Virus record (IMG/VR): IMGVR_UViG_3300031111_000236
Source of the DNA: an uncultured virus (IMG/VR IMGVR_UViG_3300031111_000236)
Lineage: Duplodnaviria > Heunggongvirae > Uroviricota > Caudoviricetes
DNA: 64,000 bases
Strand: one strand, 5' to 3'
In this document: positions 28,416 through 62,969 of the stretch, one piece after another
Layout of the letters: each line of letters opens with the position of its first letter
Position numbering within the stretch: the first letter of the stretch is position 1
Notes under the pieces: model-generated
The model's input: only the letters and a program-made list of their open reading frames with translations
What the model was told of the DNA's origin: nothing
Database searches by the model: none
Program-made: the position numbers and the translations under genes

Positions 28416-28811
28416 ATGTCATGGGAATCGGATAGTCGAAGACACAAGCTCTCCTCTTCGGGAATCCCGAATAAGAAGAGCTTCGCTATGACTGGACATA
28501 GTGTCATACAGTGGGAAGGTAATCCCATCAATGTGGGGTACACACCCATTAGTGGTGGTAAAAAGCCACCAGTTGGGACACTAAGTCTTAGTTCCGACAA
28601 TCTTGACTCTCCGTCCTTGCACGATGTGAACGCATCAGGTGACTACACCATCAGTGCGGTGAGCGAAGCCGACCAAAGCCTCCTCTTGAAGCTGGTTGGC
28701 TATCTGCATACCAATCAGATGGTAGTTCGCTTAAAGAACGGTGATGCGCTGGTCCCAGAGAAGACCAGTCGTGGAACCTTGACCCTCGTACTGAAGGAGG
28801 GTAAGAAATGA
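28416..28811 (+). CDS. Hypothetical protein with RHG-type leader
   Basis: WESDSRRHKLSSSGIPNKKSFA. Confidence 0.7.
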   Translation: MSWESDSRRHKLSSSGIPNKKSFAMTGHSVIQWEGNPINVGYTPISGGKKPPVGTLSLSSDNLDSPSLHDVNASGDYTISAVSEADQSLLLKLVGYLHTNQMVVRLKNGDALVPEKTSRGTLTLVLKEGKK

Positions 28812-50564: not shown

Positions 50565-50576
50565 GACCTCGTTTTA

Positions 50577-50598
50577 TTTTTTTTTTTTTTTTTTTTTT
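50577..50598 (+). terminator. T22 tract, probable archaeal oligo-U terminator ahead of tRNA cluster 1
   Basis: 22 consecutive T after the GHKL stop; exact length could be a homopolymer error. Confidence 0.5.
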
Positions 50599-50640
50599 AT
50601 CTCGAAACCTTTATTAGGGACCCCACCAATCTCCCTGGAG

Positions 50641-50706
50641 ATGAACAGAGCAACTCTCTTAGCATCCAGTTCGGGACTATCATCGTTGTCCCTTCTTAGT
50701 CTGTAG
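50641..50706 (+). promoter_or_regulatory. Leader ORF MNRATLLASSSGLSSLSLLSL upstream of Leu/Ser tRNA cluster
   Basis: 14 of 20 non-start codons are Leu/Ser; all six Leu codons used; TTTATTA box about 30 nt upstream. Confidence 0.8.
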
Positions 50707-50805
50707 AAGGACTGGCTGGAGAGAGTTGGAGTATCATCGTGTGCTTTTCCCTGATGCGTCTTCCAAGAGGAGTCTCGCTGTTCTGCGGCTCTCTCCGTCG
50801 AAGAT

Positions 50806-50891
50806 GCACGGGTGGCTGAGTCAGGCTAAAGCGTTCGCCTTGAGAGCGTTTGACCCTCTTGGGTTTGCAGGTTCGAATCCTGTCCCGTGCG
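50806..50891 (+). tRNA. tRNA-Ser(TGA)
   Basis: GCACGGG/CCCGTGC acceptor, long variable arm, G73; outer anticodon stem mismatched. Confidence 0.8.
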
Positions 50892-50920
50892 CCTTTCCTT
50901 CTTACATACTATCATAGAGC

Positions 50921-51008
50921 GCAGGGGTGGTCGAGAGGTCGAAGACGGGGGATTCAAAATCCTCTACCATAGGTCCCGTCCCAGGTTCGAGTCCTGGTCC
51001 CTGCACCA
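50921..51008 (+). tRNA. tRNA-Leu(CAA)
   Basis: GGGGA-TTCAAAA-TCCTC; long variable region; encoded CCA. Confidence 0.9.
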
Positions 51009-51009
51009 C

Positions 51010-51092
51010 GGCAGAGTGTCCGAGCGGCGAAGGAGGGCGGCTTAAAACCGCCTACATAGGCCACGTCAGGGGTTCGAGTCCCCTCTCTGCCT
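51010..51092 (+). tRNA. tRNA-Leu(TAA)
   Basis: GGCGG-CTTAAAA-CCGCC; long variable region. Confidence 0.85.
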
Positions 51093-51103
51093 TCACAAGC
51101 AAC

Positions 51104-51190
51104 GGGGGAGTAGCCAAGTGGTCGAAGGCGGTGCGCTCAGAACGCACTACATAGGCAACGTCACAGGTTCAAATCCTGTCTCCCCTACCA
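51104..51190 (+). tRNA. tRNA-Leu(CAG)
   Basis: GTGCG-CTCAGAA-CGCAC; encoded CCA. Confidence 0.9.
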
Positions 51191-51196
51191 TTTCAT

Positions 51197-51285
51197 GGAG
51201 AGGTAGCCGAGCCTGGTCGAAGGCGGCAGGTCGAGGACCTGCTACATAGGCAACATCGGGGGTTCAAATCCCCCCCTCTCTACCA
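51197..51285 (+). tRNA. tRNA-Leu(GAG), C33
   Basis: GCAGG-TCGAGGA-CCTGC; encoded CCA. Confidence 0.85.
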
Positions 51286-51288
51286 TTT

Positions 51289-51370
51289 GCCAGGATGACC
51301 GAGCGGTAAGGTGGCGGTTTGCTAAGCCGTAGGGCCAGTGGCCCCGCAGGTTCAAATCCTGCTCCTGGCG
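51289..51370 (+). tRNA. tRNA-Ser(GCT)
   Basis: GCGGT-TTGCTAA-GCCGT; variable arm GGGCC/GGCCC; G73. Confidence 0.9.
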
Positions 51371-51510
51371 TTATCTTTTTATATTTCGTACTCCATCGCC
51401 TATCATGGTCAAAAGTATCTATCATTACAAGTCGTCCCGTGGTTGTAGTACTCGGTTCTAACGAGTACGGGCGGCTCAATTATGCCGCCACAACCAGAGG
51501 TGACAAGCGG

Positions 51511-51741
51511 ATGACGATAGACTACGACGAGATAGATTTTGATTGCCAGGGCAAGAACAGGAACTTCTACAGGTTTGACCCGAGACCTCGCAAGATGATA
51601 CGAAGGAAGAACCATCATCTAAACGACCCAGAGTACAACTACTGGAGAGGGTACTCTACTGCCAAGAACAAGAACCCGAGGTCGAACCATTGGAAGCTGA
51701 AGAACGCCGTCAGGAGGATGAGAAAGGCGAAGGGGCGGTAG
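51511..51741 (+). CDS. Small basic protein
   Basis: 76 aa, R/K/N-rich; GAGGTGA SD; T tract after stop. Confidence 0.6.
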   Translation: MTIDYDEIDFDCQGKNRNFYRFDPRPRKMIRRKNHHLNDPEYNYWRGYSTAKNKNPRSNHWKLKNAVRRMRKAKGR

Positions 51742-51903
51742 TTTTTTATACAATGTTAGACAATATAATCACATCACGCTTTCCTCCCCCATCCATACCA
51801 TACCAAGAGGCTGGAGCCGTCTTTTTTACTCTGGGCGGCTCCAGTCCAACCTTGTTTTCGTTGGTCCGAAACCTTTTTATATTTCAGGCTTTTTTGATTA
51901 TGT

Positions 51904-53355
51904 ATGAGCTACCGATATGAGACCAGAGTTGGGGTAGTCCAGAGCGATGTGACTACACATTTCCTACTCTCTCGTATGTGCCTTGGTGCTACCCGAGTGT
52001 TCAACTCTGCCTTATGGTACTCAAGACAGCAGTGGGAACAGGTGGGTAAGATTCCGACAGGCTACGACCTTGAGAAGGTGGTGAAAGACCTTTACTGGCA
52101 CAAGCAGATACCTGCCTCTGTATCTTGCTACACGGCGCAGGAGGTGGGTCGCTCTTACAAATCGTGGTTCGCACTCAAGAAGAAAGACCCGAAGGCAATG
52201 CCACCCATGTTCAGGAGGAAGGACTGCCTGTCGCCAATGACATACAGGCCAGGTACGTACAGTATCACAAGTGTGGACCCTCTGCACTCGAAAATAGACC
52301 TTGCACTTGGTCAAAAGTTTAAGTCTGACATCGGTTACCCGTACAAGAGATTGAGTGCGGATATAAGGTGGAACTCTCCATTACCAGAGGGGGACTACAC
52401 AATCGCCCTCTTGGAGGTTGTTCCGTCCGATAGGGATGTCTCACAGAATGACCACTTTGAAATTCATATTAAGGTTAAGTTAGAGGAGCGATGGCGTGAG
52501 GAGGGTCAGGTTATGTTCATAGACCTTGGTGTTGTCAATCCCATTGTCTCGATGACAGAGGCAGGGCGTGTAGACATTTTCAAGGGCGGCTCTATTTTGA
52601 GCAATATTAGATATTGGAACAGGGTGTTATCGCACTTGTCCGAGCGTGTTATGAAAGAGTCTAACAAAAAATACTCAAAGAAGATTAAGTGGGCCTACAA
52701 AAAGAGAAACGCTCAGATTAACCAGAAACTACATTCATTAGTAAATACTTTTGTTGAAGTATGCAAAGACGAAAACGTTAAGGAGGTGGTAGTTGGAGAC
52801 TTCAAAGGTATGAAGAAACAAGCAAGTGAGACGTGGAGACGTAACCCAAGCGAAAAAGACAAGTCCAGAATGAAGACAGAAGATAGTCCTGGCAGTAGTA
52901 AGGAGATGCAGAAGGTTATGCAATTTCCAGTACAGCGGATGGTCTCAATTCTGGAATACAAACTGGCAAGGGAAGGTATTCGATTAGTAACACAGGACGA
53001 GAGCGGTACGTCTACAGGCCGTTGCTTCGTCTGTGGTCATCGGTACACTACTGATAAGGCACGTGTGAAGCGAGGTCTTTTCAAGTGCGAGCACTGTAGG
53101 AACCTGGTCAATGCCGACATTAATGGTGTTGGCAATCAGCGTGCTCGTTACCTCGGTCTCGAAAGTACTAATGGCGTGCTTGATGAGGGTCTCTCAGTAT
53201 GGGAGTCGAACGTATGGCGTTGGTGTGATGAGAACAGATGGAAACTTGCTCACGTTGCGAGAGGCCATGTGACATTCAAAACCCCTGTAGGCTCTCGACA
53301 TATAAACTTTCCTAATAACCAGCAAGGTATCTCTGTCAAGGGTAACAACCCTTGA
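51904..53355 (+). CDS. tnpB: TnpB-family RNA-guided endonuclease (IS200/IS605-related), no adjacent transposase
   Basis: RVFNSAL helix, RuvC-I FIDLG, RuvC-II VVGDF, Zn finger CFVC...CEHC, RuvC-III NADING. Confidence 0.85.
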   Translation: MSYRYETRVGVVQSDVTTHFLLSRMCLGATRVFNSALWYSRQQWEQVGKIPTGYDLEKVVKDLYWHKQIPASVSCYTAQEVGRSYKSWFALKKKDPKAMPPMFRRKDCLSPMTYRPGTYSITSVDPLHSKIDLALGQKFKSDIGYPYKRLSADIRWNSPLPEGDYTIALLEVVPSDRDVSQNDHFEIHIKVKLEERWREEGQVMFIDLGVVNPIVSMTEAGRVDIFKGGSILSNIRYWNRVLSHLSERVMKESNKKYSKKIKWAYKKRNAQINQKLHSLVNTFVEVCKDENVKEVVVGDFKGMKKQASETWRRNPSEKDKSRMKTEDSPGSSKEMQKVMQFPVQRMVSILEYKLAREGIRLVTQDESGTSTGRCFVCGHRYTTDKARVKRGLFKCEHCRNLVNADINGVGNQRARYLGLESTNGVLDEGLSVWESNVWRWCDENRWKLAHVARGHVTFKTPVGSRHINFPNNQQGISVKGNNP

Positions 53356-53608
53356 GGAGTAGTAGCGGCACTACACCGCTCGTGGAGCGTTATGCGCTGG
53401 CCACAAATCTCAGCTTAATAAGCCCTCGCAATATACGTGAGTTGTGACGGAGGATGTAGGCAGTGGACCCAAGTAGAGTATCCTGTTGACGGGCGGACTC
53501 GCAATACACGTAGTTGTGGCGGAGGATGTAGGGATTCTCGGGTTGAAGGGCAAGGACCGACCCGCCGTTGGGAAAAATGGTATATACTTCTCAGTTCTAT
53601 GTACTCTC

Positions 53609-53944
53609 ATGCTCCCTATTGGACACTTCGCTCTTGGGTACTGCATCGTCATGGCTGTGCTCCTCTTGACACGGACCTATCGCTTCGTTCTTCGTGACGG
53701 GGCCTTAGCCGCTCTTGGAGGGCTTCTCGCCATGCTACCCGACGCTCCCTACGTCTTCTTGGGTGAGCACGCCTCGTGGCACGACAGCCCCATTATGAAC
53801 ATTTTCTTTTTTCATCAGTGGTTCGACGTGCTCTTGAGAGATGACTATCTCGTGTTCCCCGCTATCCTGATAGCTATCGCAGTCCTCTTGACAGGGGTGC
53901 TCTGGATGGTTGATAAGGACCACAGTAAGGTCATCGAGAAGTGA
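53609..53944 (+). CDS. Small membrane-bound metal-dependent hydrolase-like protein
   Basis: MLPIGH...MLPD...FFFH in TM helices; ATG 53609 downstream of TATATA. Confidence 0.55.
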   Translation: MLPIGHFALGYCIVMAVLLLTRTYRFVLRDGALAALGGLLAMLPDAPYVFLGEHASWHDSPIMNIFFFHQWFDVLLRDDYLVFPAILIAIAVLLTGVLWMVDKDHSKVIEK

Positions 53945-53993
53945 ACACGTAAACTTTTTATAGTACCGTGCCGATAGTCCTGTGGTTACTAAC

Positions 53994-54071
53994 ATGAACG
54001 TAATCCCAACCTTCACGGAAAGAGTCGATAGGTGGCAGGAGCGACCCTGCCGCCATCCGCAAGTACTCTAA
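53994..54071 (+). promoter_or_regulatory. Leader ORF MNVIPTFTERVDRWQERPCRHPQVL upstream of tRNA cluster 2
   Basis: 16 consecutive codons cover exactly the nine amino acids of cluster 2; TTTTTATA at 53955. Confidence 0.8.
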
Positions 54072-54089
54072 TTTTGAGAAGGAAGAGTT

Positions 54090-54164
54090 GGGAACATAGT
54101 GTAGCCTGGTTTATCACGGTGGTCTCCAAAACCACTTACATCGGTTCGAATCCGATTGTTCCCA
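54090..54164 (+). tRNA. tRNA-Trp(CCA), intron-less
   Basis: GTGGT-CTCCAAA-ACCAC. Confidence 0.9.
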
Positions 54165-54207
54165 CTCTATTTTCTCGAAATTTTTGTACCACGAGAAGCA
54201 ACAGAGT

Positions 54208-54281
54208 GGGCCTGTAGGGTAGCTTGGATATCCTGTTGGACTCCTAATCCATTGACAGCGGTTCAAATCCGCTCAGGTCCG
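54208..54281 (+). tRNA. tRNA-Arg(CCT)
   Basis: TTGGA-CTCCTAA-TCCAT. Confidence 0.9.
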
Positions 54282-54294
54282 TTACCAAGAGCAA

Positions 54295-54368
54295 GCTCCC
54301 GTAGTGTAATGGGAAAATCATCCTTGCCTTTCAAGCAAGGGAATCGAGTTCGAATCTCGGCGGGAGTA
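54295..54368 (+). tRNA. tRNA-Glu(TTC)
   Basis: CTTGC-CTTTCAA-GCAAG. Confidence 0.9.
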
Positions 54369-54369
54369 T

Positions 54370-54447
54370 GGGCGTGTATCCGAGCCTGGACAAGGTGCGG
54401 GTCTTCTAAACCCGTTTGCAGGGGTTCAAATCCCCTCACGCCCACCA
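54370..54447 (+). tRNA. tRNA-Arg(TCT)
   Basis: CGGGT-CTTCTAA-ACCCG; encoded CCA. Confidence 0.9.
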
Positions 54448-54458
54448 TCAGCAAGCAT

Positions 54459-54532
54459 GGGCGCATAGTCTAACCTGGATAGGACACCTGGCTACGGACC
54501 AGGCAATGGGAGTTCGAATCTCTCTGCGCTCA
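54459..54532 (+). tRNA. tRNA-Arg(ACG)
   Basis: CCTGG-CTACGGA-CCAGG. Confidence 0.9.
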
Positions 54533-54549
54533 CTAAACATAAGCAAAAT

Positions 54550-54787
54550 GTGGCGGTAGCCGTCGAACGTACCTCTGGTTCCTGACGAGGAACCAAGTCG
54601 GGCACAACAAGTAGGCGGAGCGATTAACCTCAAGTCCGAAGTATCTGGGCTGAAACAATGTGGTTGAAGTCCACCCCATGTATCTCGGTGGGTAGGTCAT
54701 GTGCATGACGATGTGCAGTGACCGATACAATCCAGGTATGAGGTCTCCGAGGGAGAAATAAAGTGGGTTAAATTCCCACCCGCCGCA
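54550..54787 (+). ncRNA. About 240-nt RNA with tRNA-like acceptor stem and T arm
   Basis: GTGGCGG/CCGCCGC-A acceptor; T arm GTGGG-TTAAATT-CCCAC; internal hairpins; sits in a tRNA slot of the array. Confidence 0.6.
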
Positions 54788-54791
54788 CTAT

Positions 54792-54866
54792 GGGGACGTG
54801 GTGTAGCTTGGACCAGCACCCCTGGTTTGGGACCAGGAAACCACAGTTCGAATCTGTGCGTCCCCA
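54792..54866 (+). tRNA. tRNA-Pro(TGG)
   Basis: CCTGG-TTTGGGA-CCAGG; G1:C72. Confidence 0.9.
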
Positions 54867-54890
54867 TTACCCCTCTTGGGGGTGAGTGAG

Positions 54891-55193
54891 ATGAGCAAGC
54901 AAAAACAAACGTCAGACGCAAACAAGGCAATCAAGAACACAGCGAAGGTTCACCTTGACATCAACCACGGTAGGCTTGATGCTGAAGTGGTAATCAACGG
55001 TGTTGGCGTTAAGTTCCTCCGTGAGATGGACGCAGACGCAGAGGTGAAGATGAACAAGGTGGTCGAGAGCTTGATGACTCTCGTCCCTACCCCGTCGTAC
55101 CCGACACCTGATGAGCCTGAAGTTTGGCGTGACCAAGAATCTACTAATGATACCGTGACCCCCACGGTATCTCCTATGGCGGGAGTGGTGTAG
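54891..55193 (+). CDS. Small hypothetical protein within tRNA array
   Basis: GGTGA SD; 3' end overlaps tRNA-His. Confidence 0.5.
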   Translation: MSKQKQTSDANKAIKNTAKVHLDINHGRLDAEVVINGVGVKFLREMDADAEVKMNKVVESLMTLVPTPSYPTPDEPEVWRDQESTNDTVTPTVSPMAGVV

Positions 55194-55250
55194 TCGGTAG
55201 CATCGGAGGTTGTGGGCCTCCAGGGTTGGGTTCGAGTCCCGACTCCCGCC
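55178..55250 (+). tRNA. tRNA-His(GTG) with encoded G-1
   Basis: GGAGG-TTGTGGG-CCTCC; G-1:C73. Confidence 0.9.
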
Positions 55251-55264
55251 CTCTTGAAACCACT

Positions 55265-55349
55265 GATAGGGTGGCCGAGCCAGGTAAGGCGATAGGTTGC
55301 AGACCTGTTGTCTTAGACATCGGGAGTTCAAATCTCCCCCCTATCTCCA
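55265..55349 (+). tRNA. tRNA-Cys(GCA) with long variable arm
   Basis: ATAGG-TTGCAGA-CCTGT; TGTC-TTA-GACA arm; U73 and CCA. Confidence 0.85.
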
Positions 55350-55476
55350 CTCGCACTCGCAACAGACACATGATTTCCAGTGGAAGTCGAGACCACACAC
55401 TGTTGCCACTGGAAACATAGCCAGTCAATTTACAGTGGCAGTGGTGTCACCACACTGTTTCCACTGTAGCAAGCAT

Positions 55477-55552
55477 GGGGCAGTAGTCAAGCCAGGTTAT
55501 TGACAACACCCTTACAAGGTGTAGGTCGGCGGTTCGAATCCGTCCTGCCCTA
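55477..55552 (+). tRNA. tRNA-Val(TAC)
   Basis: ACACC-CTTACAA-GGTGT. Confidence 0.9.
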
Positions 55553-55567
55553 TTTCCCATACGCATT

Positions 55568-55640
55568 GGCCCCTTGGTGTAAGTGGACAACATATCGGGC
55601 TTTGGACCCGATGCTCTTGGTTCGAATCCAAGAGGGGCTA
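55568..55640 (+). tRNA. tRNA-Gln(TTG)
   Basis: TCGGG-CTTTGGA-CCCGA. Confidence 0.9.
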
Positions 55641-55642
55641 CT

Positions 55643-55831
55643 ATGAAGTGCCAGTTCGTTGGCGGTGTCCACGTGGACAAACATCTGCCCAACCCCGAGG
55701 ACTATGAGTGCCATGAGGAGGCTACCCATACCCTTGTGGGTAATCACAAGCAGTGGCACTTCTGTCAGAAGCACTTTGAAGAGGCCAGTGACTTCAAGGA
55801 CTCTGCAAAGCACGAAACAGCAAGCATATAG
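55643..55831 (+). CDS. Small Cys/His protein within tRNA array
   Basis: 62 aa MKCQF...ECHEEAT...FCQKH filling the spacer between the two Gln tRNAs. Confidence 0.5.
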   Translation: MKCQFVGGVHVDKHLPNPEDYECHEEATHTLVGNHKQWHFCQKHFEEASDFKDSAKHETASI

Positions 55832-55901
55832 CCCCTTGGTGTAATCAGCAACATACCAGGCTCTGGACCTGGAGAAGGCGGGGCAGAACCGTCAGGGGCT
55901 G
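55830..55901 (+). tRNA. tRNA-Gln(CTG), atypical D and T loops
   Basis: A1:U72; CCAGG-CTCTGGA-CCTGG; T loop GGCAGAA. Confidence 0.75.
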
Positions 55902-55922
55902 TTAGACAATAAGCAACAAGAC

Positions 55923-55995
55923 GCTCCCGTAGTGTAGTGGTCAACCATTTGAGGTTCTCACCCTCAAGCCTGGGGTTCGAATCCCCACGGGAGTA
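55923..55995 (+). tRNA. tRNA-Glu(CTC)
   Basis: TGAGG-TTCTCAC-CCTCA. Confidence 0.9.
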
Positions 55996-56002
55996 CTCAT
56001 AC

Positions 56003-56074
56003 GCCTCCGTAGTGTAGCGGTCATCATCTTGGTTTGTCAGGCCAGGGACTTGGGTTCAAATCCCAACGGGGGCG
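56003..56074 (+). tRNA. tRNA-Asp(GTC)
   Basis: TTGGT-TTGTCAG-GCCAG; G73; followed by T tract. Confidence 0.9.
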
Positions 56075-56118
56075 TTCTTTTTCTCAAAGTTTTTATACCT
56101 CAAGAGCTTACTCATTAT

Positions 56119-56296
56119 TGGCGAAAAAGTGGTCCCTACCGTGGATAGATAGCCTGTCAATCAGCGGTGGTGGAACATCGCAATCCCAAAGCCATCTGGG
56201 ATAGACCTCAGCGGCGGAGCGTGGTCACATCAGATACACCCGTGACCACAGAGTCCGTCGATGGGACCGCCGAGCGGTGATACGCCGCTCTCGCCA
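56119..56296 (+). ncRNA. Stand-alone structured RNA, about 180 nt
   Basis: Own TTTTATA box (56091); TGGCGA/TCGCCA closing stem; GGTCCC/GGGACC, GTGGTCAC/GTGACCAC and GAGCGG/CCGCTC helices; T tract after. Confidence 0.65.
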
Positions 56297-56368
56297 CTTT
56301 TAATATTATAAGTTTTTGGGTACACCTTATATACTTCTGGTATGATTGTCTTATATCAAGGTGGCTTT

Positions 56369-57412
56369 ATGACCAAGAAAAAGGGCTTTCGAGGCAATCC
56401 CCAGACACACAGGCTCAATGCACACGGAATACATAACGAGAGGGCTTTTGCCTCCTCTTCACCAAGCATGATAAACGTGCAAGCTCGTGCTGTCACACCC
56501 ATACAAAAGAGCCACAGTTACTCAGACAGGTCAGAACCCTCTGGTAAGGTCAACAACGGTGGCTACGTGGACGAGTACCTTGTGTTGGTCGAGAAGAAGA
56601 CGGTGGAAGAGGCTACAATCAAGCCTGGTGACGAGATAGAGATGACCTTCGCAGGGGCTCCCAATGATTTCCCGAGGCCCTGGACTCTCGTTAGTGCCAG
56701 GGACGAGTACTCTACGGTATCCTACAGCAACACCCCAACCGTAGTAGTGCGTGCGGCCAATGGCAAGGAGATGACTCTCAAGAACGCACAGGTGTATAGC
56801 CCACACAAGCCCGAGAAGTCGTTCGGGTATTGGGTCAAGCCCAAGGGCCTCCCCCCGAGATACGAAAAGTACGTGACCATCCAGGACGAGGTAACTCTCC
56901 TCGAACTCATAAAGAAAGAGGACCAAGGCGGTATCAACGAGTACATAGAGAAGATGTACGAGAGGTCTGGAATAGACAAGAAGAAATACCCGCTCAACTT
57001 CTTCAGGGTGGATGTCATTAACGGTCTCTGGTACAAGGGACTCGTGAAGCAAAAGAACAGTCGCATGGCTATCTCCAAGCATGGTGAGAAGGTTCTCAAG
57101 AGTGGGGCTTTCGGCTCTGCTCAGATGCGTGATTGGGAGAAGAACAAGGTTGTTAAGATGGACGATGAGGACATCGAGATATTCGATGCCAAAACCCAGA
57201 AAATGATACGCAAGTACATGAAGAAGGGTAACCTCTACTATATGTTCGGCTTCCTGGTCTTCGAAGATGACAAGTCTCTACGTATCGTCGGAGAGAACGA
57301 CTCTTATGATGATTACACTATCAGGATGAGAACCAAGGACTTTGATAAGGTGTACGATAGACTGGAGAACGCAGACGGTGGCGTTTACGCCACAACCGAA
57401 GGCTGGAAGTGA
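56369..57412 (+). CDS. Multi-domain hypothetical protein with RHG-type leader
   Basis: GFRGNPQTHRLNAHGIHNERAFA. Confidence 0.75.
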   Translation: MTKKKGFRGNPQTHRLNAHGIHNERAFASSSPSMINVQARAVTPIQKSHSYSDRSEPSGKVNNGGYVDEYLVLVEKKTVEEATIKPGDEIEMTFAGAPNDFPRPWTLVSARDEYSTVSYSNTPTVVVRAANGKEMTLKNAQVYSPHKPEKSFGYWVKPKGLPPRYEKYVTIQDEVTLLELIKKEDQGGINEYIEKMYERSGIDKKKYPLNFFRVDVINGLWYKGLVKQKNSRMAISKHGEKVLKSGAFGSAQMRDWEKNKVVKMDDEDIEIFDAKTQKMIRKYMKKGNLYYMFGFLVFEDDKSLRIVGENDSYDDYTIRMRTKDFDKVYDRLENADGGVYATTEGWK

Positions 57413-57416
57413 TGAT

Positions 57417-57680
57417 ATGGCGGACTTCTTTCAAACAGTGGGACTTGGAATTGCTGTAGGTATCTCCGTAGTACTCGGCTTGATACTCGGGTGGGCCATG
57501 TACTTTAACGCTAAGAAGTGCGGCAGGAGCACGGTCTGGGGCATAGCCTACATCATATTCTCGCCAGTGATGACACTCTTGAGCTTCCTGGGGTTCCCAG
57601 GAGCATGGGCTTTCGCCTACCTTCCCTGGCTCATCATAGTCGGATACCTCTTGACAGGGGCCAACAAGTGCTCGACGTGA
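57417..57680 (+). CDS. Small membrane protein
   Basis: Three hydrophobic segments. Confidence 0.6.
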   Translation: MADFFQTVGLGIAVGISVVLGLILGWAMYFNAKKCGRSTVWGIAYIIFSPVMTLLSFLGFPGAWAFAYLPWLIIVGYLLTGANKCST

Positions 57681-57684
57681 GACG

Positions 57685-58071
57685 ATGTACAAGGCCGCCC
57701 TCCTTGGTCTAATTACTCTCCTGGTACTCGCACCATTGTGTATACTTGTAATTGAAGAGTTCAGGGACCAGCCAGACATAGAGGAGACGACTACACTCGA
57801 TTGGTGGTCTGTAGTTCACTTCGGCTCAGGCGTGGTGCTCTTTCTGGTCCTATCAAGGATTGGATTTTCGCCGAGAGCGAATATCATAGTCACTACTGTG
57901 CTTGGCTGTCTGTTTGAGGTGGTCGAGCACCTCCTCATTGAACCTCTTGCCATGTTTGGTGGTAGAGAGCTGGTTTTCAATATAGGGGCAGATATGCTCC
58001 TCGTCTATTTGGGTGCTATCACGGCGATGTGGATATGGTGTCGCAAGACAGAGTGCCCTCTTGATGTTTAG
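57685..58071 (+). CDS. Membrane protein, possible intramembrane metal-dependent hydrolase
   Basis: DWWSVVHF..G, FEVVE, E...N..AD in TM helices. Confidence 0.55.
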   Translation: MYKAALLGLITLLVLAPLCILVIEEFRDQPDIEETTTLDWWSVVHFGSGVVLFLVLSRIGFSPRANIIVTTVLGCLFEVVEHLLIEPLAMFGGRELVFNIGADMLLVYLGAITAMWIWCRKTECPLDV

Positions 58072-59045
58072 TGAGAGTACTCTGAATAGGTTGAGTAGGC
58101 AAGTGCACCCTGTATCAAGAGGACTATCTCATCGACGACCCTCTTGTACTTCTTGATATCAATGCAGTGGATACCGCCAACGTTGACGTGGCCGCCTCCA
58201 CCGTATCTCTTCATGATGTCACCGATGTTTGGGACTGTGCGCTTCTGGTCCTTCTTGAATATGTTCATGCCAACGTTCATCCTCACGAACTCGGGAGAGT
58301 CGCCGTAGAAGCTCACGCTGATGAGATACTCCACCTCGGGGTACTCAGCGTATATCTCGTACAGGCTATCGGAGAACCCTGGTATGTCGCATACGTCAAG
58401 GACGGCTACACCATGCTCCCTGATATCGAGCCTCCTCTTGGTGATGTCCTTGAACGACTTTTGCTTGTCCCTCTTGTCGAAGAACCGCCTCTTGGCCCAA
58501 TCGCTGTTAGCTATATCGCTAAAGCTCTTGCCTCTCATAAGCTCTGATATGACCCAACGCCTGTAGTCGTCGTCCTCTCTTCTATTTCCGCTCCTGAGCG
58601 TGATGGAGATGATACCAGCGGTGCTCGGGTTGAGTACCTCCTCTGGTGTCAGGTCCCCGCTGTCTATCTTGTTGGTGTACTTCAGGATAGACTGGAACCT
58701 CCTGTTGCACGGTAACTTGGAGGCGTACATCCTGTATATGACGGCGGCACAGCTCGGCTCAAGGAACCAGTGCCAGACACCGATACTGTCGTCGTTAGAG
58801 TCGATGTTAGGCTTGTTCGAAATGTGGTGGTCGGCCCAAAGCCCTGCTACTTTCGGTTGCGGGAGGTCGCAGACGATATCCCTCTTGGTCGTGTAGACCT
58901 GCCCTGCTTTCATATCGTTCGGGGTAGTGAAAATAATGTTCTCCACAGGTATCTTGAATATGGTAGCCATGAAGAACCCACTTATCACCCCGTCGAGGTC
59001 GTCGTGTGTAATTATTCTGTCGTATTTGCACATAGGCATCACCAC
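58068..59045 (-). CDS. DHH/DHHA1 phosphoesterase (NrnA/nanoRNase-like)
   Basis: THDDLDG, CDLP, ADHH, GGGGHVNVGG. Confidence 0.85.
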   Translation of the reverse strand: MVMPMCKYDRIITHDDLDGVISGFFMATIFKIPVENIIFTTPNDMKAGQVYTTKRDIVCDLPQPKVAGLWADHHISNKPNIDSNDDSIGVWHWFLEPSCAAVIYRMYASKLPCNRRFQSILKYTNKIDSGDLTPEEVLNPSTAGIISITLRSGNRREDDDYRRWVISELMRGKSFSDIANSDWAKRRFFDKRDKQKSFKDITKRRLDIREHGVAVLDVCDIPGFSDSLYEIYAEYPEVEYLISVSFYGDSPEFVRMNVGMNIFKKDQKRTVPNIGDIMKRYGGGGHVNVGGIHCIDIKKYKRVVDEIVLLIQGALAYSTYSEYSH

Positions 59046-59169
59046 TGATATTGGTGTCAGGAGTTATAATGGGTCGGCGGGAAGCTCGTGTTTTGAAGAC
59101 AATAGAAGTGCACCGCCCTTCCCAAAACCTTATTTACTTCGACCCTCTCTTGATGCTTGATGATAGTCG

Positions 59170-59682
59170 ATGACGTGGAAATGGGAAAAGCTGGAGGCAC
59201 AACTCCTGGCAGTCCGAGCCATAAAGGACTACGCAGTTGTGTCTGGGGGCCTCGCATGGCATTTAATGTCGCCGCCCCACGAAGAGAACAAGAAGGTCCA
59301 CGACCACTCTGATGTGGACTTATTCATAATCCCAGAACACTTCGCCACCGCTATTGAAATTCTGAAGAGCATGGACTTCCACCGATGGTGGACCAGGTAC
59401 GATAACATCACTCCCAACTTCTACAGGTATGGTAAGACCACTACCTGGACCAACGGCAAGAGGGTGAAAACCGAGCTTGACCTATTCGTCCGTAAGATGC
59501 CATACCGCATGGTAGGTGAGTTCAAGGTCATAACACCAGAGGCTCTATTACCTCTGTATCAGGAGTGCCACTCAAGTTCGAGATGTGTAGCCGTACAGTC
59601 GGCAATACAGCTCATGAAGAACGGGATAGACCCTCTTGGGCGAATTGAATTAGTGGAGGGGATACCATGCCGACACTCTTGA
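59170..59682 (+). CDS. Pol-beta superfamily nucleotidyltransferase
   Basis: VSGGLAW...HSDVDLF...ELDLF. Confidence 0.7.
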   Translation: MTWKWEKLEAQLLAVRAIKDYAVVSGGLAWHLMSPPHEENKKVHDHSDVDLFIIPEHFATAIEILKSMDFHRWWTRYDNITPNFYRYGKTTTWTNGKRVKTELDLFVRKMPYRMVGEFKVITPEALLPLYQECHSSSRCVAVQSAIQLMKNGIDPLGRIELVEGIPCRHS

Positions 59683-60635
59683 GCAGGAAGGACTTTCGAG
59701 AGGGAGTCTTCAGAAGGGACGGCGGGGTATGCGTTGTTTGCGGTGAGAAGGCCGCAGATGCCCATCACATCGTTGAGCGTGCCTTATGGAATGATGAGGG
59801 CTACTACATGGAGAACGGGGCCTCAGTGTGCACTAAGCACCATCTCCTTGCCGAGAGCAATCACATACCTCCCTGTGTCGTGAGGAGGTACGCTGGTATC
59901 AAGGATACTGTGGTCCCGAAGAGCTTCGACCCTACTCTTGAGTACGATAAGTGGGGCAAGCCGTTCGTGAACCCGACCAGGGACGACATCAAGTACCCTT
60001 CCACCTTCTATCTGAACTTTTCACCAAGTCAGTATGATGAGGAGGGGAAGGCTGAGAACGTAGACAACAAGGACTTCGCCAGGGTCCCTCTTGTAGCCAC
60101 TATCAAGATGGACGGGGCCTGTTGTAAGCTGACACCAGATTACGTGGCCGCTCGTAATGGTTCGCACGCCACCAAGAAGAGCTTCGATATGCTCAAGGCT
60201 ATGCACCCGAGTTTCAAGTACCTGATACCACAGAACGTGAGGGTATTTGCAGAGTGGCTTTACAAGAAACACTCGATACATTACACGGATGACATGGCAC
60301 TCGGCTCCCTCTTGCAGGTTTTCGGAGTTTACTACGTCGATAAGAGGATATGGGGGTCATGGGACGAGGTAGAGGCAATGGCCGCTACTCTTGGGTTTCC
60401 CACCGTTCCTGTTATTTCGAAGTTCGAGGTCGATACCGAGTGGGAGTTCGCCAACAGGGTATCTAAGATGGCCGAGGACATCGTTGCACAGGGTCACGAG
60501 GGTCTTGTGGTCAGGAACGCCTTCGCCTTTCATTACGGGCAGTTCGGACGCTTCATGGGCAAGTACGTTCGTGCTAATCATATTCAGATAAAGGACGAAG
60601 ACGAGCGTACTATCATACGGAACGAGACTGTTTGA
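59667..60635 (+). CDS. HNH-type domain fused to ATP-dependent RNA ligase
   Basis: CVVC...AHHI...NGASVCTKHH; ligase motifs KMDG, FAEW, FGV, EGLVVR, KYVR. Confidence 0.8.
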   Translation: MPTLLSRKDFREGVFRRDGGVCVVCGEKAADAHHIVERALWNDEGYYMENGASVCTKHHLLAESNHIPPCVVRRYAGIKDTVVPKSFDPTLEYDKWGKPFVNPTRDDIKYPSTFYLNFSPSQYDEEGKAENVDNKDFARVPLVATIKMDGACCKLTPDYVAARNGSHATKKSFDMLKAMHPSFKYLIPQNVRVFAEWLYKKHSIHYTDDMALGSLLQVFGVYYVDKRIWGSWDEVEAMAATLGFPTVPVISKFEVDTEWEFANRVSKMAEDIVAQGHEGLVVRNAFAFHYGQFGRFMGKYVRANHIQIKDEDERTIIRNETV

Positions 60636-60689
60636 GCATCGTCCCACAACCCTTAAATATCATCGAGACATAATCAAGAGGGAGCAGAG

Positions 60690-60773
60690 ATGACTCACTT
60701 TACCTATATCGGGACCGCTATAACGGGCGGAACATACGCCAAAACCGCAATTAAGAGCGGTAATGGGCAGTAG
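60690..60773 (+). promoter_or_regulatory. Leader ORF MTHFTYIGTAITGGTYAKTAIKSGNGQ upstream of tRNA cluster 3
   Basis: 23 of 26 non-start codons are amino acids of cluster 3; CTTAAATA at 60652; GGGAG SD. Confidence 0.8.
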
Positions 60774-60884
60774 AATCCCGATGAAGGTGAAGTTCTTGTA
60801 GAAATTTTTTCTGCGTCGCTGAAATTTTTCAAAGAGGGCCTCGCCCTCTCGGTGTTCTTCTTCCATTAGTCGCTCGTAGAGATT

Positions 60885-60959
60885 GGACCCGTGGCCAAGT
60901 TAGGGACGGCAGTGGGCTTTTAACCCACCAAATCCAGGGTTCGAATCCCTGCGGGTCCG
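60885..60959 (+). tRNA. tRNA-Lys(TTT)
   Basis: GTGGG-CTTTTAA-CCCAC. Confidence 0.9.
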
Positions 60960-60970
60960 CTCTATTTTGT

Positions 60971-61044
60971 GGGTCCATAGCTCAGTTAGGTTGAGCAGGG
61001 GACTCTTAATCCCAAGGTCGGGGGTTCAAATCCCTCTGGACCCA
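60971..61044 (+). tRNA. tRNA-Lys(CTT)
   Basis: GGGGA-CTCTTAA-TCCCA. Confidence 0.9.
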
Positions 61045-61138
61045 TTGACCCGAGGTTTACGTCGCAGGGCTGTATCGCAGGTTGCGACGAGGATGAGGTG
61101 GCGACATCCTTCACTCACCTGCGTCGATACGCAACCAT

Positions 61139-61211
61139 GTCACTGTGGCCAAACGGTGAAGGCACTCGGCTGTTAACCGAGAGATTGCAGGTTCGAATCC
61201 TGTCGGTGACG
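61139..61211 (+). tRNA. tRNA-Asn(GTT)
   Basis: CTCGG-CTGTTAA-CCGAG. Confidence 0.9.
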
Positions 61212-61226
61212 TTCAATCATACGCAA

Positions 61227-61333
61227 GCACGGGTGGCCAAGTTGGTAAGGCACTCATCAGGGTGGTGCAAGTCCACGTACAAAATAATCAGCACTGTTGA
61301 GAAGGACCGTGGGTTCAAGTCCCACCCCGTGCG
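61227..61333 (+). ncRNA. tRNA-like RNA with the anticodon loop replaced by a larger structured insert
   Basis: Perfect acceptor, D and T arms; about 39 nt where a 7-nt anticodon loop should be. Confidence 0.7.
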
Positions 61334-61350
61334 TTCAATCGCAACACAAT

Positions 61351-61429
61351 GGGAGTATAGCATAGCCTGGGATTGCGCCAGAGTGAAGTCTTGGTCATTG
61401 CGGGAGTTCAAATCTCTCTGCTCCCACCA
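61351..61429 (+). tRNA. tRNA-Phe(GAA), atypical anticodon arm
   Basis: CCAGA-GTGAAGT-CTTGG; encoded CCA. Confidence 0.75.
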
Positions 61430-61433
61430 TCAT

Positions 61434-61507
61434 GGGCTCGTAAGTCAGTTAGGGAGACTACCTCTCCTGCAAAGAGGAAGCCGAGGGTTCAATTCCCTCC
61501 GAGTCCA
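61434..61507 (+). tRNA. tRNA-Ala(TGC), C33
   Basis: G3:U70; CCTCT-CCTGCAA-AGAGG. Confidence 0.9.
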
Positions 61508-61513
61508 CTATAT

Positions 61514-61587
61514 GCCACCGTAGCTAAACTGGATAAGGCAGTCGCCTTGTAAGCGACAGATTGGGGGTTCGAGTCCCTTCGGTGGCT
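61514..61587 (+). tRNA. tRNA-Thr(TGT)
   Basis: GTCGC-CTTGTAA-GCGAC; U73. Confidence 0.9.
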
Positions 61588-61601
61588 CTTACAAACGCAA
61601 C

Positions 61602-61672
61602 CTGCTCATGGTGTAGTGGTAGCACGGGTGGCTGTAGACCTCCAAGCGGGAGTTCGACTCTCTCTGGGCAGA
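61602..61672 (+). tRNA. tRNA-Tyr(GTA), archaeal/eukaryal type
   Basis: C1:G72, short variable loop, GGTGG-CTGTAGA-CCTCC. Confidence 0.9.
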
Positions 61673-61677
61673 TTCAC

Positions 61678-61751
61678 GGGCTGTTAGCCAAGCTGGTAAG
61701 GCGTTCGGCTCATAACCGAAAGACTCGGGGGTTCGAGTCCCTCACGGCCCA
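61678..61751 (+). tRNA. tRNA(CAT), probably Ile2 rather than Met
   Basis: TTCGG-CTCATAA-CCGAA; GGGC acceptor start like tRNA-Ile(GAT); ATA codon present in the cluster leader. Confidence 0.8.
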
Positions 61752-61764
61752 TTAGATAAGCAAT

Positions 61765-61837
61765 GCTGGCGTGGCTCAGGCAGTAGAGCGTCGCTCTGGT
61801 AAGGCGAAGGTCGTGGGTGCAAATCCCATCGTCAGCT
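61765..61837 (+). tRNA. tRNA-Thr(GGT), atypical T loop
   Basis: TCGCT-CTGGTAA-GGCGA; T loop TGCAAAT. Confidence 0.85.
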
Positions 61838-61840
61838 TTC

Positions 61841-61867
61841 CAAGTGATATCAAGTGATATCAAGTGA
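61841..61867 (+). repeat. Tandem 10-bp repeat CAAGTGATAT x2.7
   Basis: Direct reading of the spacer. Confidence 0.8.
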
Positions 61868-61873
61868 ATCCAA

Positions 61874-61948
61874 GGGCGTATGGCGCAGTGGTAGCGCACT
61901 CGCCTGATAAGCGAGAGGCCGTGAGTTCAAGCCTCACTACGCCCACCA
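61874..61948 (+). tRNA. tRNA-Ile(GAT)
   Basis: CTCGC-CTGATAA-GCGAG; encoded CCA. Confidence 0.9.
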
Positions 61949-61949
61949 T

Positions 61950-62024
61950 GCGAGAGTGGTGTTCAACGGTTCAGCATATCTGGCTTCCAACCAGACGGTC
62001 AGGGTTCGACTCCCTGCTCTCGCA
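61950..62024 (+). tRNA. tRNA-Gly(TCC)
   Basis: TCTGG-CTTCCAA-CCAGA; A73. Confidence 0.9.
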
Positions 62025-62034
62025 CTACAGGAGC

Positions 62035-62223
62035 GTGGTACAATCGGTCTACTGCCCAAGATGCCAGAACAAGATGCGCCGAGTGTTCGACTCGACACAG
62101 ATATGCGACCACTGCCGAACGAGGTGGTCCATAGACGAGCTGAAGATGCCTACCTTGAAGTCCTTTCGTGACAGAATAGACTTCAGGGACATAGAGGAGG
62201 AGTGGGTGTGGAATCCAACATAA
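62035..62223 (+). CDS. Small Zn-ribbon protein within tRNA array
   Basis: CPRC...CDHC; AGGAG before GTG; fills the spacer between the two Gly tRNAs. Confidence 0.55.
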   Translation: MVQSVYCPRCQNKMRRVFDSTQICDHCRTRWSIDELKMPTLKSFRDRIDFRDIEEEWVWNPT

Positions 62224-62295
62224 GCGGTGTTGGTGTTAGTGGTAGCATACCTGGTCGCCATCCAGGAGGGGTGGGTTCGAATCCTGCACACCGCA
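62224..62295 (+). tRNA. tRNA-Gly(GCC), C33
   Basis: CCTGG-TCGCCAT-CCAGG; A73. Confidence 0.85.
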
Positions 62296-62420
62296 CTGGC
62301 CCCTGGCCTATACAATAAGGAGGTGGTACGTCGAGTACGAAAAGAAGTGACACCAGGGGGACGGGGTTCGTCCTCGTCCCCACCCATTTCTTTTTATATC
62401 TCGTGCGTGTAGGATTGCTC

Positions 62421-62969
62421 ATGGAAGTCACTATCGAGATAACACAGTGGTGTGATAGAGGATGTCCCTACTGTTCGAGTAATGCTACAGAGGGCGGGAA
62501 GCATCTGTCTTATCACGATATTCACACTTTTCTTCAGGACGTGTACAAGAAGCACGGCATCTCCAGGATAAACATATCAGGAGGCGAACCTCTCGCTCAC
62601 CCAGACTTCTACATTATCAAGAGGCTCTGTGACAAACTTTGCGATGAGGTTTGGGTCTACACTAACGCTATCCAGAACATCATATTCAATGCTGACTGCA
62701 TGAAGGAAGTCCGAGTACACGCCAATGTGTGTATGACGGCTGGTGACAAGTACATACCGAAGAACGTCGAACAGGTCCACCTCTTGAAGGCCGTTCATAA
62801 GGGCCGAGCAAAGGACATGGAACTGCCCAACATCAAGGCTTCTGGGAATTTTTTCGAAGGTAAGCACGGTGGTTGCTCAAAGTGCGAACACGCCCTTTTA
62901 CAGGCTGATGGTAAGATAGTAGAGGCCCCGTGTAAGAAGGATTACCAATGCTCTATCAAACAGCAGTAG
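62421..62969 (+). CDS. Short radical SAM protein
   Basis: CDRGCPYC, ISGGEP, YTN; C-terminal CxxC...PC. Confidence 0.85.
   Translation: MEVTIEITQWCDRGCPYCSSNATEGGKHLSYHDIHTFLQDVYKKHGISRINISGGEPLAHPDFYIIKRLCDKLCDEVWVYTNAIQNIIFNADCMKEVRVHANVCMTAGDKYIPKNVEQVHLLKAVHKGRAKDMELPNIKASGNFFEGKHGGCSKCEHALLQADGKIVEAPCKKDYQCSIKQQ

Follow-up and report, generated by a model that had tools for sequence, protein, structure and literature searches.

Codon-Matched Leader Reading Frames in Front of Three tRNA Clusters of a Virus-Like Element: Candidate Sensors of Decoding

Introduction

The leader-peptide attenuators thrL, ilvL/ivbL, hisL, leuL, pheL and trpL of enterobacteria are multivalent devices, in which the speed of the ribosome on a short leader reports the supply of charged tRNA. 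The pheM leader of pheST and the T-box riboswitches likewise sense tRNA charging in cis, and the genes under their control belong to the translation apparatus itself. In the present work, we examine a locus that resembles both groups, and in which the genes downstream of the putative sensors are tRNA genes. It is found in a stretch of 64,000 nucleotides (hereafter the window) of the IMG/VR record IMGVR_UViG_3300031111_000236, which originates from a marine-sediment metagenome. Each of the three tRNA clusters in the window is preceded by a tiny open reading frame (ORF), called L1, L2 and L3 below, that consists largely of codons for the amino acids served by that cluster. The likeness to the enterobacterial attenuators is twofold: a tiny 5′ ORF is rich in codons cognate to the product of the unit, and this ORF overlaps RNA that is able to pair downstream.

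The regulation of viral tRNA arrays is essentially unknown, and their role is debated between the matching of codon usage and the escape from tRNA-cleaving immunity. Immunity by cleavage of tRNAs, which viral tRNAs counteract, has been described (PMC12409363). We consider it fairly probable, on the evidence of the sequence, that the three leaders are translated cis-acting sensors, coupling the decoding of a codon panel to the expression of the tRNA cluster that follows. Pfam and PHROGs revealed neither a capsid nor a terminase family in the window; since the viral nature of the DNA is unproven for this reason, we refer to it as a virus-like element.

The Leaders and Their Codons

The + strand of the window carries all 31 tRNA genes, which span 50806-62296; 30 of them are called by ARAGORN and one by Rfam. 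The latter (55830-55901) is assigned to Gln because its anticodon loop reads CUG. The genes form three clusters that share no amino acid and jointly cover all twenty. Cluster 1 (50806-51371; ARAGORN, Rfam) consists of Ser(TGA), Leu(CAA), Leu(TAA), Leu(CAG), Leu(GAG) and Ser(GCT). Cluster 2 (54090-56075) starts with Trp, Arg(CCT), Glu(TTC), Arg(TCT), Arg(ACG), Pro and His, and continues with Cys, Val, Gln(TTG), the Gln(CTG) gene at 55830-55901, Glu(CTC) and Asp; it also contains two small ORFs and a tRNA-like element of 240 nt. Cluster 3 (60885-62296) starts with Lys(TTT), Lys(CTT), Asn, Phe, Ala, Thr(TGT) and Tyr, followed by a CAT-tRNA, Thr(GGT), Ile, Gly(TCC) and Gly(GCC). The tRNA with the CAU anticodon is of the elongator type, and is thus either Met or Ile2.

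The leaders are all on the + strand, have 21-27 codons and stop 18-112 nt upstream of the first tRNA. L1 (50641-50706, MNRATLLASSSGLSSLSLLSL) has 14/20 codons for Leu or Ser, counted, as for the other two, with exclusion of the start codon, and 10 of the 12 Leu and Ser codons are present in it. In L2 (53994-54071, MNVIPTFTERVDRWQERPCRHPQVL), 18/24 codons belong to the set of its cluster, and in L3 (60690-60773, MTHFTYIGTAITGGTYAKTAIKSGNGQ) the count is 23/26. Each leader holds all amino acids of its own cluster, L2 all nine of them, with the qualification that Met appears in L3 solely as the start codon.

To put these counts into perspective, we compared the leaders with the sets of all three clusters. 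The leader-by-set matrix reads 14/1/5 for L1, 1/18/5 for L2 and 1/2/23 for L3. With the leaders kept fixed, only 2/1,000,000 random 2/9/9 partitions of the twenty amino acids reach the observed total of 55/70. We also scored every ORF of 15-40 codons in the window, on either strand and with nested starts, 1794 in total, for enrichment in each set; L1 comes first, L2 fifth and L3 first in the ranking for the set of its own cluster. When the choice is left to a script that takes the best of the 2, 10 and 4 candidate ORFs lying no more than 350 nt upstream of the respective cluster, L1, L2 and L3 are recovered again (rank 1, 5 and 1 of 1002). The match of leader and cluster is far beyond chance.

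The match is, furthermore, limited to the frame of the ORF. The other two frames give in-set counts of 3 and 6 of 20 for L1, 8 and 7 of 24 for L2, and 9 and 10 of 26 for L3. A pyrimidine-rich composition as the source of the Leu/Ser leader is rejected on account of these values for L1. Another option considered was that of a precursor of a ribosomally synthesized and post-translationally modified peptide, serving a nearby radical-SAM gene, which cannot account for three set-matched leaders.

We now turn our attention to the choice of codons. The 55 in-set positions use 47 distinct codons, while 37.3 ± 2.26 are expected when synonymous codons are resampled from the usage of the window itself, and 0/20,000 such simulations reach 47. 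Distributed over the leaders, 10/12, 17/25 and 20/24 codons of the respective sets are present in L1, L2 and L3, and taken together the three ORFs hold 52 of the 61 sense codons. The number of times a residue occurs tracks the degeneracy of its codons, with a Spearman coefficient of 0.91 as compared to 0.41 for the proteins of the window. For His, Asp, Asn and Phe, the leaders contain the U-ending codon, the genomic share of which is 0.22-0.38 (a post-hoc observation); each of these amino acids is decoded by a single G34 tRNA, and the genome prefers the C-ending codon. Assuming standard wobble, the tRNAs of the own cluster can read 47/55 in-set codons. Selection acts thus on the codons rather than on the peptide. 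The codon diversity and the degeneracy pattern are expected of a device read by ribosomes, and not of a peptide that has its own function.

A preliminary description of this DNA had already listed 31 tRNAs in three clusters with non-overlapping amino-acid sets, a tiny ORF and a TATA box before each, cognate counts of 14/20, 18/24 and 23/26, every amino acid of a cluster in its leader, and synonyms that are sampled rather than repeated. ARAGORN and Rfam together, our recount, the permutation of amino-acid sets (2/1,000,000 as good) and the codon simulation (0/20,000) bear out all of these points, with Met in L3 as a start codon only.

Promoters, Terminators and RNA Folding

A TATA-like box is found on the + strand in front of each leader: at 50610-50617 for L1 (aaaccTTTATTAg, 31 nt before the ATG, which is the spacing of the leaderless-type genes in the window), at 53955-53962 for L2 (gtaaacTTTTTATAg, 39 nt) and at 60653-60660 for L3 (cccTTAAATATc, 37 nt). 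The last one resembles the tcTTAAATAct that precedes the gene at 28416, and was missed by our regular expressions. In the window as a whole, a TATA/BRE-like motif (aaaNcTTTTTATA, gTTTAAATA or similar) is located 8-50 nt upstream of 18/50 gene starts, to be compared with 1.2 expected at random positions and a maximum of 7 in 2000 trials, and in many genes it lies ca 30-33 nt before the ATG. In leaderless archaeal mRNAs, the promoter box is expected at about that distance from the ATG. The spacings of 31-39 nt suggest therefore that the predicted start of transcription coincides with the beginning of each leader ORF or lies about 10 nt from it at most. Between the leaders and the tRNAs, and inside clusters 2 and 3, no further TATA-like motif was detected by the regular expressions, a search that is not exhaustive, as the box of L3 escaped it.

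Oligo-T terminators are the archaeal style, and in this genome runs of five or more T appear to behave as such. They are 8.4-fold denser outside + strand ORFs, are often located 7-13 nt past stop codons, and mark the ends of cluster 1 (51376-51380, +) and cluster 2 (56078 and 56090, +). One additional T5 run follows the first tRNA of cluster 2 (54181-54185, +). A scan for sigma-70 promoters and intrinsic terminators yielded no excess over shuffled sequences (12 vs 9.3 and 12 vs 9.1). Between the gene for a GHKL-type ATPase and the L1 promoter there is a GC hairpin followed by TTTTA and 22 T (50552-50598), which looks like a very strong terminator signal and could insulate leader 1 from upstream transcription.

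The TATA/BRE-like promoters and the oligo-T runs after stop codons, together with a class I tRNA-Tyr, are the reasons why we treat the element as archaeal-type. The tRNA-Tyr has 71 nt, compared with 84-89 nt in two phage loci (L004 and L007), and class I is the archaeal form of this tRNA. The tRNA-Arg at 54459-54533 has the anticodon ACG (A34) within an otherwise archaeal-type set; to our knowledge, A34 tRNAs are not used by archaea, and this unusual gene speaks against the assignment.

Next, we consider the RNA. In the minimum free energy folds of all three regions from leader to tRNA, codons ca 3-9 pair with the segment just past the stop codon, and the z-scores of the folds are −2.1, −4.0 and −3.6 for units 1, 2 and 3, respectively. 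The corresponding duplexes, all on the + strand, were compared with 1000 shuffles and with 648 other genomic windows. In unit 1, the segment 50708-50736 pairs with codons 1-11 of L1 (−26.4 kcal/mol; 2/1000 shuffles, 0/648 windows); in unit 2, 54078-54093 pairs with codons 4-7 of L2 (−16.7 kcal/mol; 22/1000 and 7/648); and in unit 3, 60776-60794 pairs with codons 3-8 of L3 (−25.2 kcal/mol; 0/1000 and 0/648). The preliminary description had proposed that the first codons pair with the sequence just past the stop, and this pairing is recovered for all three leaders. The closing stem of unit 2 takes in the first bases of tRNA-Trp, and in unit 1 a second hairpin joins the spacer to the 5′ strand of tRNA-Ser.

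A terminator-like layout is clear for the third leader only. There, a T6 (60805-60810) and a T5 run (60825-60829) sit in the 112-nt spacer, followed by a GC hairpin with a T-rich tail (60833-60849), and we regard 60805-60859 (+) as a candidate attenuator. In units 1 and 2, the T runs next to the leader are T4 only, an example being the one at 50744-50747 (+) near L1. When the region covered by a ribosome is masked in the fold, an alternative long stem appears in unit 3 only. A cmscan search of 50400-62500 (E ≤ 0.1) detected no T-box or other Rfam cis-regulatory family at gathering score, the hits being tRNA and sub-threshold plastid or tmRNA fragments only.

Leaders in Other Genomes

Codon-matched leaders occur independently in two huge-phage genomes, and in one of these, LR745208.1 (485 kb), their content co-varies with the content of the array. 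In this genome, codon-matched ATG-ORFs end 6-50 nt before tRNA clusters. The Tyr-Cys-His cluster is preceded by MNQHLHHHCY (6/9 in set), the Pro-Ala cluster by MNLSTHSTNTAPAATAACVVACVGPAAPPAA (14/30), the cluster of three Thr tRNAs by MRFFTTTRTRTAGLTRKG (6/17), that of three Arg and two Gly tRNAs by MYTKTTTHGRDGGTLARGCGRVQRRRRIRPTT (13/31), the Glu-Asp-Glu cluster by MNSYTTSERERESDSERT (5/17), and the cluster of five Leu tRNAs by MFDRATNSIPSLKLELLLSCAGVDLCTRA (6/28). Over 11 clusters, the diagonal score is 21.0, while label permutations give 5.6 ± 2.4, and 0/20,000 of them reach the observed value. In the Glu-Asp-Glu and the five-Leu leaders, the regulatory codons pair with the segment that abuts the first tRNA.

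The only homology found between LR745208.1 and the window concerns two proteins, the 471-aa GHKL-type ATPase encoded upstream of cluster 1 (49149-50564; 36% identity) and an HNH-RNA ligase (59667-60635, +; 34%), the gene of which ends 54 nt before L3. The two genes are adjacent in the huge phage (L001 20001-22282), and lie 9 kb apart in the window, with clusters 1 and 2, a TnpB gene and other ORFs between them. Some further features of the phage leaders can be mentioned. In several of them (L233/L234, 144233-200485) a Thr/Ser/His-rich stretch comes before the regulatory codons, and a TATACT box is present upstream of each. A Met-Asn(AAC) opening is seen in 5/9 leaders, namely L1 and L2 of the window and 3/6 in LR745208.1.

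In the second genome, LR756501.1 (735 kb), a Trp-His-His-Phe-Lys-Ser cluster is preceded by an ORF beginning with MLQTSKHSKHFSSSSKWF, and then by a canonical hairpin-U terminator. The 5′ arm of this terminator is complementary to codons 21-23 of the ORF, which is the classical attenuator geometry. Finally, in HGTV-1 (NC_021328.1, 49217-49179, minus strand), a 12-codon ORF (MKSKTTTTGTRL) lies between a tRNA-Ala and Thr-Thr-Thr-Lys tRNAs. It is possibly a weak analogue in a cultivable archaeal virus.

Proposed Mechanism and Alternatives

In the mechanism that we propose, each tRNA cluster would be one transcription unit, transcribed from the archaeal-type promoter at its leader. A ribosome would load on the nascent 5′ end and translate the codon panel, which consists almost entirely of codons for the amino acids of the downstream tRNAs, with synonyms maximised and wobble-read codons favoured. 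By virtue of this composition, the dwell time of the ribosome on the ORF would report the decoding of the whole codon family. As long as the ribosome is on the ORF, which would be longer if any codon is slow, the 5′ part of the ORF would be kept from the post-stop segment. Once the ORF is cleared, the closing stem would form and probably also block further initiation. Its state at the time when the polymerase crosses the spacer would then determine whether transcription continues into the tRNA genes. This control could be exerted at the oligo-T tracts, which are present in the spacer of unit 3 and in weaker form in units 1 and 2, via a termination factor acting on naked RNA, or via access to the 5′ end of the first tRNA. 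Both the nature of the output step, which may be termination at oligo-T, termination by a factor, or processing, and its sign are inferred from sequence features. A translated sensor of decoding is favoured over a peptide product because the codons are frame-specific, matched to the cluster, sampled over synonyms and placed at the predicted 5′ end.

Concerning the sign, we prefer the case in which slow decoding would lead to more expression of the tRNA cluster, i.e. a demand-driven feedback. The reasons are the panel of diverse, rare and wobble-read codons and the terminator geometry of LR756501.1. The opposite sign was also considered. There, efficient translation of the leader would keep the cluster transcribed, as a translation-competence gate or a positive feedback, either because the ribosome follows closely behind the RNA polymerase or because it shields the emerging transcript from factor-dependent termination, for instance by the archaeal FttA/aCPSF1. 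Such a route would fit well with ORFs that end 18-112 nt before the first tRNA (6-50 nt in LR745208.1), with T tracts after the leader stop codons, and with the fact that a clear antiterminator is not present in units 1 and 2. However, a shortage of one tRNA would then silence its own replacement, which is ill-suited to a panel of rare and wobble-read codons, and in the classical geometry of LR756501.1 stalling favours the antiterminator. We therefore judge the opposite sign to be unlikely.

A post-transcriptional action of the leaders is, in our estimate, just as improbable. In this scenario, pairing of the leader or spacer near the 5′ end of the first tRNA hinders its folding or its cleavage by RNase P, or triggers decay, and ribosomes relieve the effect. 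The contacts of the unit 2 closing stem with tRNA-Trp and of the unit 1 spacer hairpin with the tRNA-Ser 5′ strand are what one would expect from it, as is the pairing of regulatory codons beside the first tRNA in the Glu-Asp-Glu and five-Leu units of LR745208.1. On the other hand, only the first of 6-13 tRNAs would be affected directly, and yet the leaders list all amino acids of the cluster; moreover, no such pairing is predicted in unit 3.

The leader RNA could also bind the tRNAs of the cluster by codon-anticodon contacts without any ribosome, in a T-box-like manner or as a sponge. The leaders are indeed dense lists of cognate codons, but these codons are confined to a single ATG-to-stop frame, which opens where the transcript is predicted to begin, and the other frames are not enriched. 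Isolated 3-nt contacts require a dedicated scaffold, as in the T-boxes; contacts of this kind alone would require one here, and the search of 50400-62500 found no T-box or other Rfam cis-regulatory family. This makes ribosome-independent sensing very improbable. Chance frames, or micropeptides unrelated to the tRNAs, would be in line with ORFs that are short and homologue-free and with the low-complexity, hydrophobic nature of L1, but they are scarcely credible in view of the enrichment, partition, codon-diversity and frame statistics and the recurrence in LR745208.1, and a peptide function does not predict a maximal diversity of synonymous codons.

It is important to point out that a number of observations weigh against the translated-sensor mechanism itself. 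We know of no demonstration of leader-peptide attenuation in archaea, where coupled transcription and translation exists. Under standard wobble, 8/55 in-set codons are unreadable by tRNAs of their own cluster (TCC twice, CTA, GTC, CCC, GCT, GCC and ATA), of which ATA would become readable if the CAU tRNA is tRNA-Ile2. The three units have no common terminator geometry, and the alternative stem of unit 3 can form only once the T tracts have been transcribed, so that a classical antiterminator is not evident there. The LR745208.1 leaders are without visible U-tract terminators, and 17/18 clusters of LR756501.1 are without a matched leader. For HGTV-1, the permutation signal is weak (90/20,000), and the first leader scan was unconvincing.

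The comparative searches belong on the same side. A close relative of this genome was not found across phage, viral, genome and metagenome collections: blastn of 50500-54200 against the phage collection gave no match, and no relative came from single-protein scans of viral contigs with the 471-aa ATPase (top homologue 49% identity) and with the RNA ligase, or of genome contigs with TnpB. When 51 window proteins were compared with all fetched loci by tblastn, at most 2 genes were common to any locus. ATPase-linked arrays are present in 3 of 51 viral loci (L004, L007 and L044), and these have no matched leader. The alignment of the RNA ligase against metagenome contigs gave 52 loci, 4 of them with tRNAs; one has a single tRNA (L059), and the arrays of L071, L074 and L096, with 6-10 tRNAs each, lack a matched leader, L071 and L074 being the nearest RNA-ligase-linked arrays with an archaeal-type tRNA-Tyr. 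Against viral contigs, the same alignment gave 6 loci, and the 4 that were scanned (all but L107 and L111) are without tRNAs.

The preliminary description had interpreted the leaders as a candidate attenuation system and had named co-variation of their codon content with the array as a test. With respect to the former, the ORFs are real, frame-specific, codon-matched and located at predicted 5′ ends, and the co-variation in LR745208.1 adds to this, while the terminator layout is clear only in L3. With respect to the latter, the co-variation is found in LR745208.1 (0/20,000) and is missing from L004, L007, L044, L071 and L074 and from LR756501.1 overall.

A link to host defence by tRNA cleavage is plausible, given the HNH-RNA ligase gene 54 nt upstream of L3 and what PMC12409363 describes. 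On sequence grounds, a role of this ligase in tRNA repair is possible. In a wider perspective, we tentatively suggest a new class of regulators, a ribosome-read decoding gauge in tRNA-rich viruses. The window could represent its archaeal form, with nearly the whole codon table contained in three mini-ORFs and each cluster switched on when any of its codons becomes slow.

Other Features of the Locus

Within cluster 2, a structured element of ca 240 nt (54549-54788; fold z −3.4) has a tRNA-like acceptor stem (GUGGCGG...CCGCCGC) and a T arm, and its insert, which is very large, contains another hairpin of T-arm type. It is called by neither ARAGORN nor Rfam; possible identities are a tRNA that is disrupted or rich in introns, and a tRNA-like RNA. 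In cluster 3, a 107-nt tRNA-like element (61227-61333) also has an extra internal T-arm-like hairpin, and its acceptor stem and D arm resemble those of the tRNA-Ser(TGA) of cluster 1. It is called solely by the relaxed intron mode of ARAGORN, unconvincingly as Asn; if it were a Ser tRNA, the lone Ser codon of L3 would count as in-set. Reading the two elements as intron-containing tRNAs was rejected, as attempts to decode them gave none.

Small protein ORFs within the clusters (54891-55193, 55643-55831 and ca 62030-62223) are presumably co-transcribed with the tRNAs. Two of them are Cys/His-rich and zinc-ribbon-like, and no family match was found for them. A tandem repeat of tcaagtgata, in ca 2.5 copies, lies between tRNA-Thr(GGT) and tRNA-Ile (61840-61870).

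For most proteins of the window, Pfam and PHROGs give nothing. A TnpB/IS605 OrfB-type gene (51904-53355, 483 aa) with its own TATA box is located between clusters 1 and 2, and its Atlas neighbours belong to mixed taxa. Between clusters 2 and 3, a 356-aa protein (56342-57412) is homologue-free among 5.8 billion proteins, apart from one partial paralogue of 82% identity on the same 184,795-bp contig. The gene for a 170-aa protein (59170-59682) adjoins the RNA ligase gene, as it does in two other loci (L095 and L100; 43% identity). As a clue to the host, the anticodon-arm pattern of tRNA-Ile was uninformative, since the genome contigs matched by it came from both bacteria and archaea.

Comparison with Known Systems

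Full-text searches, which covered papers other than subscription-only ones, returned no publication on the control of tRNA genes or arrays by leader peptides or upstream ORFs. The words "leader" and "promoter" are absent from the text of PMC13532342 on the HGTV-1 tRNAs; "leader", "attenuat", "tRNA cluster" and "tRNA array" from that of PMC7162821 on huge phages; and "leader", "attenuat", "promoter" and "terminator" from that of PMC11025619, an opinion article on phage tRNAs. The novelty claimed in the preliminary description has to be toned down nevertheless, since similar leaders are present in the huge phages LR745208.1 and LR756501.1.

If the mechanism is true, viruses gauge the translation capacity and adjust their own tRNA supply, so that translation would be buffered against depletion of host tRNAs. 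Non-coding RNA genes, and probably archaea, would then be added to the range of leader-peptide control, and termination would rely on oligo-T or on a factor rather than on the bacterial hairpin. It would be the first case of such control of tRNA genes, and among the first ribosome-mediated attenuators in archaea. The leaders would also constitute compact natural multi-codon reporters of tRNA availability, possibly useful as sensors. Because parallel leaders exist in public huge-phage genomes, a systematic survey is feasible now.

Reports on virus tRNA arrays in relation to host defence or codon mismatch (PARIS/AriB; HGTV-1) describe a situation akin to that of the window, where a large tRNA set lies beside an RNA ligase. 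In their available parts, regulation of the array, which is the subject here, is not described. The leaders of LR745208.1 and LR756501.1 are the closest in design, being short ATG-ORFs directly upstream of a cluster and enriched in its amino acids. Those genomes have bacterial-type tRNAs and promoters (with the −10-like TATACT), whereas the window is archaeal-type. Furthermore, most of their clusters serve one amino acid or a small set, and the regulatory residue occurs in runs in the leader, while the leaders of the window cover 2-9 amino acids.

The pheM leader responds to a single amino acid, the T-boxes bind tRNA without a ribosome, and neither of the two controls tRNA genes. The enterobacterial attenuators control biosynthetic enzymes, and their leaders contain runs of one to three amino acids; here, the targets are tRNA genes, up to nine amino acids are represented with 17-20 codons sampled, and the synonymous codons are diversified. 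The expression signals differ as well, with an archaeal-type promoter and a leaderless or near-leaderless start of the ORF, and, in place of the canonical hairpin-U terminator, with oligo-T tracts and a closing stem around the entire ORF. What is new with respect to known leader-peptide control is thus the tRNA-gene target, the multi-amino-acid codon panel and, probably, the archaeal-type domain.

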